Assembly (NCBI GenBank): GCA_022785265.1 | Contig: JALFQD010000403.1 | Coordinates: 1-52,896 of the forward strand | Length of the DNA stretch: 52,896 bases | Direction: 5' to 3' | Source of the DNA: Clostridium sp. | Lineage (GTDB): Bacteria > Bacillota > Clostridia > Clostridiales > Clostridiaceae | In this document: piece after piece, positions 28,628 through 28,732 of the stretch | Layout: each line of letters starts with the position of its first letter | Numbering within the stretch: position 1 is the stretch's first letter | The notes under the pieces: generated by a model | Databases searched by the model: none | Told to the model about the DNA's origin: nothing | The model's input: the letters and a program-made list of their open reading frames with translations, nothing else | Position numbers and translations under genes: made by a program

Positions 28628-28657
28628 TTGACAGAGATAAAAAATTTTTTGTATAAT
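28628..28657 (+). promoter_or_regulatory. Perfect consensus TTGACA-17-TATAAT promoter on the plus strand, opposite to all neighbouring genes
   Basis: TTGACA at 28628-28633, a 17-nt spacer, then TATAAT at 28652-28657. It is followed ~40 nt later by the bidirectional terminator 28689..28730. Confidence 0.5.
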
Positions 28658-28663
28658 ATATTT

Positions 28664-28732
28664 AAGAGAAACGCCCAGAGATATAAATAAAAAAATTGGA
28701 TAGTATATAAAATATACTATCCAATTTTATAT
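28664..28732 (+). ncRNA. Predicted ~70-nt small RNA from the plus-strand promoter to the bidirectional terminator
   Basis: Inferred only from the promoter-plus-terminator geometry. There is no ORF. Confidence 0.3.
28689..28730. terminator. Bidirectional rho-independent terminator
   Basis: 13-bp stem TTGGATAGTATAT/ATATACTATCCAA flanked by A-runs and T-runs on both sides. Confidence 0.65.

Follow-up and report, generated by a model that had tools for sequence, protein, structure and literature searches.

A probable promoter opposed to its neighbours, and a possible short convergent transcription unit, between the lysis cassette and a topoisomerase operon of a TAG-recoded phage

Between the lysis cassette and a topoisomerase operon of an uncultured phage, a single plus-strand site very probably acts as a functional promoter of the sigma-A/sigma-70 type, because its resemblance to the phage's own promoter family extends well beyond the two hexamers and it appears to be under the same constraint as the neighbouring promoter that drives genes. 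The window (the whole stretch of DNA analysed, 52,896 nucleotides) covers 53 kb of a phage genome of ~190 kb, has a G+C content of ~31% and carries nearly all of its genes on the minus strand; within these 53 kb, this is the only instance of a reversed promoter at a boundary between a late and an early operon. We tentatively propose that the promoter belongs to a short convergent transcription unit guarding the junction of lysis cassette and topoisomerase operon, a reading that, taken whole, falls somewhat short of being probable. Comparison of relatives points to a local element of modest reach, acting as antisense or insulator, and not to a novel regulatory RNA.

Read in the minus direction, PIN-PhoH is followed in turn by endolysin, holin-like protein, hairpin, ~100 bp containing the plus promoter, minus promoter, DUF5662, GyrB, an ORF of 103 aa, RNase H and GyrA (Table 1), a layout that agrees with the initial annotation, which had placed the element between the promoter of gene 27913..28542 and the 3' end of the endolysin-holin operon. 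That annotation also described all flanking genes as lying on the minus strand, as is the case for real-looking ORFs of at least 30 aa within ~8 kb on each side, and the plus strand as empty, which it is not: a real plus-strand gene occupies 37259-37999. The latter has one in-frame TAG (37723), repeated CxxC zinc-ribbon motifs, an endonuclease-like C-terminus and its own plus-strand terminator (37978-38005), and is probably a mobile nuclease gene. The likely start of DUF5662 is the ATG at 28524, after GGAG. The holin-like protein, whose ORF ends (28732) 3 nt from the hairpin, has one strong and one weaker hydrophobic segment and an acidic C-terminal tail; it has no match in Pfam or PHROG, and its putative role as a holin is suggested by its position.

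Table 1. Features of the operon boundary, with variable sites among 17 close relatives of the window
Feature	Position	Strand	Remarks
PIN-PhoH gene	30493-31755	-	Followed by terminator 30488-30457
Endolysin, lysozyme-like domain and Amidase_2, 433 aa	29129..30430	-	One ORF only with 9 in-frame TAG as sense
Holin-like membrane protein, 131 aa	28732..29127	-	Last gene of the lysis operon; stop codon overlaps the predicted 3' end of the plus-strand RNA
Two-way hairpin	28692..28728	.	Terminator of the minus-strand lysis operon and probable terminator of the short plus-strand RNA; stem 0/34 variable
Hairpin loop			3/3 variable (AAA/TTT flip)
Unpaired A-rich 5' tail of the predicted RNA	28665..28691	+	From the fold; no start codon, no ORF; 7/27 variable (26%)
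Discriminator ATATTTA and inferred start (A at 28664)	28658..28664	+	TATAATATATTTA common to minus promoters 22818 and 28557
-10 hexamer TATAAT	28652..28657	+	1 variant among 17 relatives
Spacer GAGATAAAAAATTTTTTG, 18 nt, with A6T6 tract	28634..28651	+	Tract common to minus promoters 21407, 21659 and 22818
-35 hexamer TTGACA	28628..28633	+	TTGA invariant across 4/4 aligned clades
Plus promoter, -35 to start site		+	1/37 variable
Stretch between both -35 hexamers, 35 bp (14-16 bp in other clades)	28593..28627		4/35 variable
Promoter of the DUF5662-GyrB-RNase H-GyrA operon	28557..28592	-	TTGACT, 17-nt spacer, TATAAT, ATATTTA; back-to-back with the plus promoter; 1/36 variable
DUF5662 protein, first gene of the downstream operon	27913..28542	-	PF18907, E=4.5e-34
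Third codon positions, both flanking genes			124/334 variable (37%)

TAG is a sense codon in this phage, and the TAGs within the conserved lysozyme motifs of the endolysin fall where Gln is expected; there are six in-frame TAGs in the RecJ-like gene and two in the DnaB-like gene (10824-12572 and 14521-16053), and none in the holin-like gene, whose ATG lies 1 nt after the endolysin stop. No suppressor tRNA was found in the window, where the only tRNA is a tRNA-Cys (50328-50404). Judged from the translations by eye, most of the window seems to be a module for replication and nucleotide metabolism (2276-6265, 7207-8400, 10824-12572, 13231-14334, 14521-16053, 21677-22795 and 40303-41682) that includes a PHP-domain DNA polymerase III alpha-like protein, a RecD-like helicase, a RecJ-like nuclease, a primase, a DnaB-like helicase, a DNA ligase and an RNA ligase, and the lysis cassette is embedded midway in this module. 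The terminator behind PIN-PhoH (30457-30488) abuts the ribosome-binding site of the endolysin (30431-30445) and leaves no room for a promoter; an endolysin without its own promoter implies that the lysis genes need terminator read-through or antitermination, and such dependence makes control at operon boundaries plausible. The nearest cultured relatives of the endolysin belong to phages of Acutalibacter, Agathobaculum and Faecalibacterium; therefore, the host is probably a gut member of the Clostridia, in which a TTGACA/TATAAT promoter would be at home.

The plus promoter matches the sigma-70/sigma-A-type consensus at 12/12 positions with a spacer in the range of 16-18 nt. The initial annotation located the hexamers correctly at 28628-28657 and gave the spacer as 17 nt; since the span of 30 nt is 6+18+6, the spacer is 18 nt (28634-28651). 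The start of transcription at 28664 is predicted from the usual distance of 7 nt. By chance, 0.07 exact copies of TTGACA-N16-18-TATAAT are expected in the window over both strands (sd 0.26); two are observed, the other at 21407-21435 on the minus strand, and none of 100 shuffles reached two.

Several minus promoters of the window share a family signature that consists of an A5-6/T5-6 tract in the spacer and TATAAT-ATATTTA, and the plus promoter has both elements. The minus promoters at 22818 and 28557 likewise carry the full signature; those at 21407, 21659 and 16640 carry only part of it, either the A/T-tract spacer or the -10 context. All five precede the starts of minus-strand ORFs, by ~20-75 nt for four of them and by ~290 nt for 16640 (distances from ORF coordinates), and the family amounts to a ready set of strong Firmicutes-type promoters. 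Two of its members, at 21407-21435 (12/12) and 21659-21687 (11/12), are strong tandem minus promoters, 250 nt apart and near-identical, with TTGACAAATAAAAAA..TTTTTT spacers, and each precedes a small ORF (89 and 66 aa).

The minus promoter next to the plus promoter (TTGACT-17-TATAAT, 28592-28564 from hexamer to hexamer) forms with it an inverted repeat of 26 nt with 88% complementarity (28557-28582 / 28639-28664); from this repeat, the two appear to be copies of one promoter type placed back-to-back. Their predicted starts are separated by ~107 bp, a distance that is ~85-87 bp in other clades. At other places in the window, terminators directly abut the next promoter (16695/16668, 36984/36960 and 38754/38720); at the boundary between the lysis operon and DUF5662, ~100 extra bp hold the plus promoter, and this layout suggests that they exist to hold it. 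A GGC..GCC operator-like motif between the two promoters is polymorphic. We rejected an invertible promoter on sequence grounds: swapping the 56-bp segment that separates the inverted arms would exchange near-identical -35 elements at near-identical offsets, with no change.

The predicted plus-strand transcript (~28664-28732, ~67-72 nt) consists of AAGAGAAACGCCCAGAGAUAUAAAUAAA, then the hairpin, then a U-tract; it folds into an unpaired tail of 28 nt and a hairpin (-18.6 kcal/mol, z=-8.5). The stem is a perfect 17 bp (28692-28708 / 28712-28728) with a 3-nt loop, made up of a 13-bp core with three G:C pairs (28696-28708 / 28712-28724) and four A:T pairs outside it, and begins 35-39 nt past the -10 hexamer. 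Thus, the 13-bp hairpin ~40 nt downstream is as initially annotated, whereas the U-tracts claimed for both strands are unequal: on the minus strand U7 comes after the core, on the plus strand UUUUAUAUU, with only four U before an interruption, and the terminator scanner called the minus orientation only. The annotated non-coding product of ~70 nt is consistent with the absence of any usable ATG, GTG or TTG frame between 28664 and the hairpin, even with TAG as sense; the only transcript possible is predicted to end at the hairpin. A terminated lysis mRNA and the short RNA would overlap over ~28689-28732 (~44 nt), that is, across the hairpin and the holin stop codon.

Within the tail are two AGAGA motifs, and a direct repeat CAGAGATA (28632 and 28676) keeps neither its spacing nor its sequence in other clades. 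A search of the whole window against Rfam 15 gave no match at gathering score except the tRNA at 50331-50404, and in a permissive local search of the site no hit had an E below ~1 and all fell far short of the gathering scores. The hairpin loop (28709-28711) is AAA in 6-8 of the 17 relatives, depending on the position, and TTT in the remaining 9-11, a flip that amounts to a loop inversion such as results when the hairpin arms recombine. Two-way hairpins flanked by A/T are common in this genome, also at sites without an antisense promoter, and their shape therefore does not set this site apart. A CRISPR-repeat mimic or anti-CRISPR RNA was considered and rejected, as the hairpin sequence is wholly different between clades and behaves like a terminator.

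A DNA search with 27000-30500 found no match among 50,697 phage records; relatives were obtained by protein-anchored searches, which delineate a family of uncultured phages of ~100-200 kb. Variation within the clade of the window was assessed in 17 distinct, closely related sequences, in which many variants are singletons (Table 1). The plus promoter is much less variable than the third codon positions of the flanking genes (Fisher p=4e-6), also when only A/T sites are counted (1/32 versus 84/270, p=3e-4). It is less variable than the tail as well (p=0.008), a difference that loses significance with A/T sites only (p=0.11). Variation in promoter length is limited to the spacer, in which a T5 run instead of T6 gives 17 nt in 5/17 relatives; the sole variant of the -10 hexamer is TATATT in one relative (L003), by a change at 28656. 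Single relatives lose one or the other AGAGA motif of the tail. These frequencies suggest that purifying selection on the plus promoter equals that on the neighbouring gene-driving promoter and that the RNA tail varies near-neutrally within the clade.

The same contrast appears between clades. In the L023/L024 clade, of which DUF5662 is ~63% identical to that of the window, TTGACA-17-TATAAT-ATATTTA is kept in the same place and orientation. Aligned with L024, the plus promoter matches at 33/36 sites and the minus promoter at 27/36, compared with 7/16 plus 19 gaps for the stretch between them and 11/23 plus 44 gaps for the tail; the plus promoter is thus the best conserved intergenic block, and the surrounding intergenic DNA no longer aligns. 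The tail of the L023/L024 clade (~68 nt) is unrelated in sequence and ends at a different two-way terminator (GGGAGATTTTATCTCCC). The promoter is TTGACA-17-TACTAT (10/12) in the L095/L097 clade, where the tail is ~35 nt, and TTGATT-17-TATTCT (8/12) in the L016-L022 clade; across clades, the tail thus measures 28, ~35 or ~68 nt, and changes in the hairpin stem are compensatory. No plus promoter element was found in more distant GyrB relatives, and in none of the relatives examined does the promoter drive an ORF. The element is dispensable, given that it is weakened in two clades and absent from these more distant relatives. Of the two features for which the initial annotation had proposed a check of conservation, the promoter is indeed kept and the transcribed sequence is not; selection appears to act on the promoter and the hairpin, not on the sequence of the RNA.

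Scans of the whole collection for the back-to-back pattern revealed no new clade, and most of their hits were unrelated phage promoters of Firmicutes type with ordinary ORFs under their control; a pattern scan of metagenomes added members of the two clades with perfect promoters. An apparent antisense promoter (11/12) in L125-L132, as far from gyrB as the one described here, was rejected, being inside coding sequence and not homologous. Three TAG-recoded metagenome contigs (L291, L315 and L316) have a similar back-to-back pair with TTGACAAAGAAAAATTTTTTTGGTATAATATATTTA on one side, of which the second promoter drives a real ORF with an in-frame TAG at codon 4 or 5. In L016-L024, ~190-230 nt upstream of the DUF5662 match, just 6-7 nt separate the -10 hexamer of the minus promoter from the start codon (ATG) of an additional ORF of ~60 aa, which suggests a leaderless mRNA. 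In L004 (4614-5640) and also in L122-L124, DUF5662 and gyrB are separated by an insertion of ~1 kb, in which an ORF of GIY-YIG type probably encodes a homing endonuclease.

The reading that we favour is that a host-type (sigma-A/sigma-70) promoter of the phage's early or middle family, opposed to every neighbouring gene, sends RNA polymerase from ~28664 over 28 nt into the lysis terminator hairpin from the other side. The resulting RNA would form a perfect antisense match with the lysis mRNA at its 3' end and with transcripts that read through the terminator, or the polymerase itself would meet read-through polymerases head-on; by one or both of these routes, the unit could mark and tighten the operon boundary between the lysis cassette and the replication genes. 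If termination on the plus strand were leaky, antisense transcription would extend into the holin gene for as long as host-type promoters are active. Transcription, its start and end points and the mechanism in cis are here inferred. Action in cis is the most likely, because selection falls on the promoter and the hairpin and not on the sequence of the RNA: an RNA that is antisense in cis always matches the opposite strand, whatever its sequence, and needs no conservation, and collision of polymerases makes no demand on sequence either. Hence, of the two roles that the initial annotation had offered, a cis-antisense regulator is the sole survivor, whereas a processed RNA with a sequence-specific function of its own disagrees with the unconserved tail and the lack of an Rfam match. 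Against the favoured reading, the lysis mRNA and the short RNA would overlap only across the hairpin, and 3-nt loops are poor for kissing contacts; the weakened versions in two clades and the interrupted U-tract of the plus strand also count against it.

Rather unlikely, in our estimation, is that the plus promoter serves its neighbour, tuning the back-to-back promoter of the DUF5662-gyrase/topoisomerase operon as a competitor for RNA polymerase and upstream contacts or as a source of negative supercoils for the divergent promoter, with the short RNA as a harmless by-product. The pairing of the inverted-repeat promoters at the distances given above is kept in 4/4 clades, the operon faced away from encodes a type II topoisomerase, and an unconstrained tail is compatible; yet the distance from -35 to -35 is not conserved (35, 16 and 14 bp), and the minus promoter works with no strong partner in L016-L022 and with none at all in L106/L107. 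The promoter might also have no function, whether as a chance occurrence, a relic of, for example, a lost plus-strand gene or a copy of its neighbour kept similar by A/T-rich composition. Its decay in two clades and its absence from distant relatives are what a functionless element would show, and in such A/T-rich DNA, 9-10/12 matches are equally frequent before and after shuffling. To judge from the title of one study (PMC3419515), antisense promoters in bacteria are reportedly frequent and rarely conserved. An exact match is nevertheless expected only 0.07 times per window, purifying selection on it equals that on a gene-driving promoter, and the best conserved intergenic block between clades drives no ORF in any relative, all of which makes the absence of function unlikely.

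Three further explanations assign a specific task to the RNA. That it is a type I antitoxin in the style of par/Fst, which would neutralize the holin-like mRNA by way of the terminator common to both and of a further contact at the ribosome-binding site, is improbable: the convergent layout, shared two-way terminator, strong promoter and short RNA are as in par of pAD1 (PMC7472228), the target operon ends with a membrane protein and the probable host is in the Firmicutes, but no direct repeats link the RNA tail to the start regions of holin or endolysin, the protein has 131 aa and is not an Fst-like peptide of ~33 aa, the hairpin loop is only 3 nt, and the L016-L024 clades carry another gene of ~100 aa between holin and terminator. 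Very improbable is a trans-acting sRNA that pairs with mRNAs of phage or host or acts as a sponge for an RNA-binding protein (for example Hfq) via its AGAGA/A-rich tail. The shape is suitable (strong promoter, unstructured tail with two AGAGA motifs, terminator hairpin), but the tail varies near-neutrally inside the clade and bears no relation from one clade to the next, single relatives drop an AGAGA, and Rfam has no match. The initial annotation had suggested target prediction in the lysis region; pairing of the 28-nt tail with minus transcripts of 27800-31900 was no better than that of shuffled controls, the best off-locus site, inside phoH, reaching -17.1 kcal/mol against -14.9 +/- 2.3 (minimum -19.1) for shuffled tails. 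On the alignments, an sRNA acting in trans thus seems largely refuted by non-conservation. Transcript-primed replication origins are exemplified by T4 oriF and the T7 primary origin, and such a role was once proposed for lambda oop. A promoter-driven R-loop in A/T-rich DNA beside replication genes could likewise prime an origin here; the site is among genes for gyrase, RNase H, ligase, primase and helicase, and a strong promoter precedes an A/T-rich stretch. We give this explanation very little weight, as cumulative GC skew shows no inflection where it passes the site, a strong hairpin follows immediately and the promoter has decayed in two clades.

Returning to the convergent unit at the operon boundary, a more specific version, in which TAG-recoded gut phages set an early-phase guard on their lysis cassette by firing antisense transcription into the 3' end of the lysis operon, is doubtful. 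An antisense brake from an early promoter would fit, by inference only, the published picture of TAG recoding. If this version were true, the read-through terminator and the nine in-frame TAGs would be joined by a brake at the level of transcription or RNA, and three superimposed layers would time lysis in these uncultured phages of ~190 kb. If the promoter is active, it would offer an example of how a phage whose genes share one strand keeps a dangerous late module, holin and endolysin, insulated from adjacent genes, and would link such insulation to the stop-codon recoding proposed for lysis timing in gut phages. The conserved feature appears to be the initiation of transcription and not the RNA made, which calls for caution in predicting sRNAs from promoter-terminator pairs.

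The closest working analogues appear to be lambda OOP RNA and par RNA II, and by this comparison the element is in neither family. OOP is a short, terminated RNA of ~70-77 nt from the promoter pO, convergent with the cII-O transcript, and acts as a cis-antisense RNA with RNase III. Work on it by Krinke and Wulff is cited in PMC5869508. Like OOP, the unit described here is phage-encoded, would be constitutively promoted against the main direction of transcription and is predicted to be complementary to the 3' end of the convergent message; unlike OOP, which overlaps ~50 nt of the cII coding sequence, it would overlap only the holin stop codon and terminator, its target would be a lysis cassette and not a regulator of lysogeny, and it is known from sequence alone. 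In par (RNA I / RNA II) of the Enterococcus plasmid pAD1, convergent promoters share one two-way terminator, the stem-loops of which are the point of contact (PMC7472228). Convergent RNAs that share a two-way terminator, one of them a very short regulatory RNA, are predicted here as well, whereas none of the DRa/DRb repeats for pairing at the toxin start, the U-turn loop and the ~33-aa Fst peptide was found. Interference between convergent promoters operates at pR/pL of coliphage 186, and T4 makes early antisense 'anti-late' RNA. As in both of these, a strong promoter here points head-on into a functionally different unit and the RNA sequence would be irrelevant, but a terminator stands between the units, so that collisions would involve only read-through polymerases. 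Stop-codon recoding has been proposed by Borges et al. to suppress mis-timed expression of lysis genes in gut phages; the mechanism that they describe is translational, and the word 'antisense' occurs 0 times (10.1101/2021.08.26.457843). The phage described here is of the same kind, with nine in-frame TAGs in its endolysin, whereas the plus promoter, if it acts on lysis at all, would be a separate layer at the level of transcription. In this company, the element belongs to the general kind of the short phage cis-antisense or convergent transcript.
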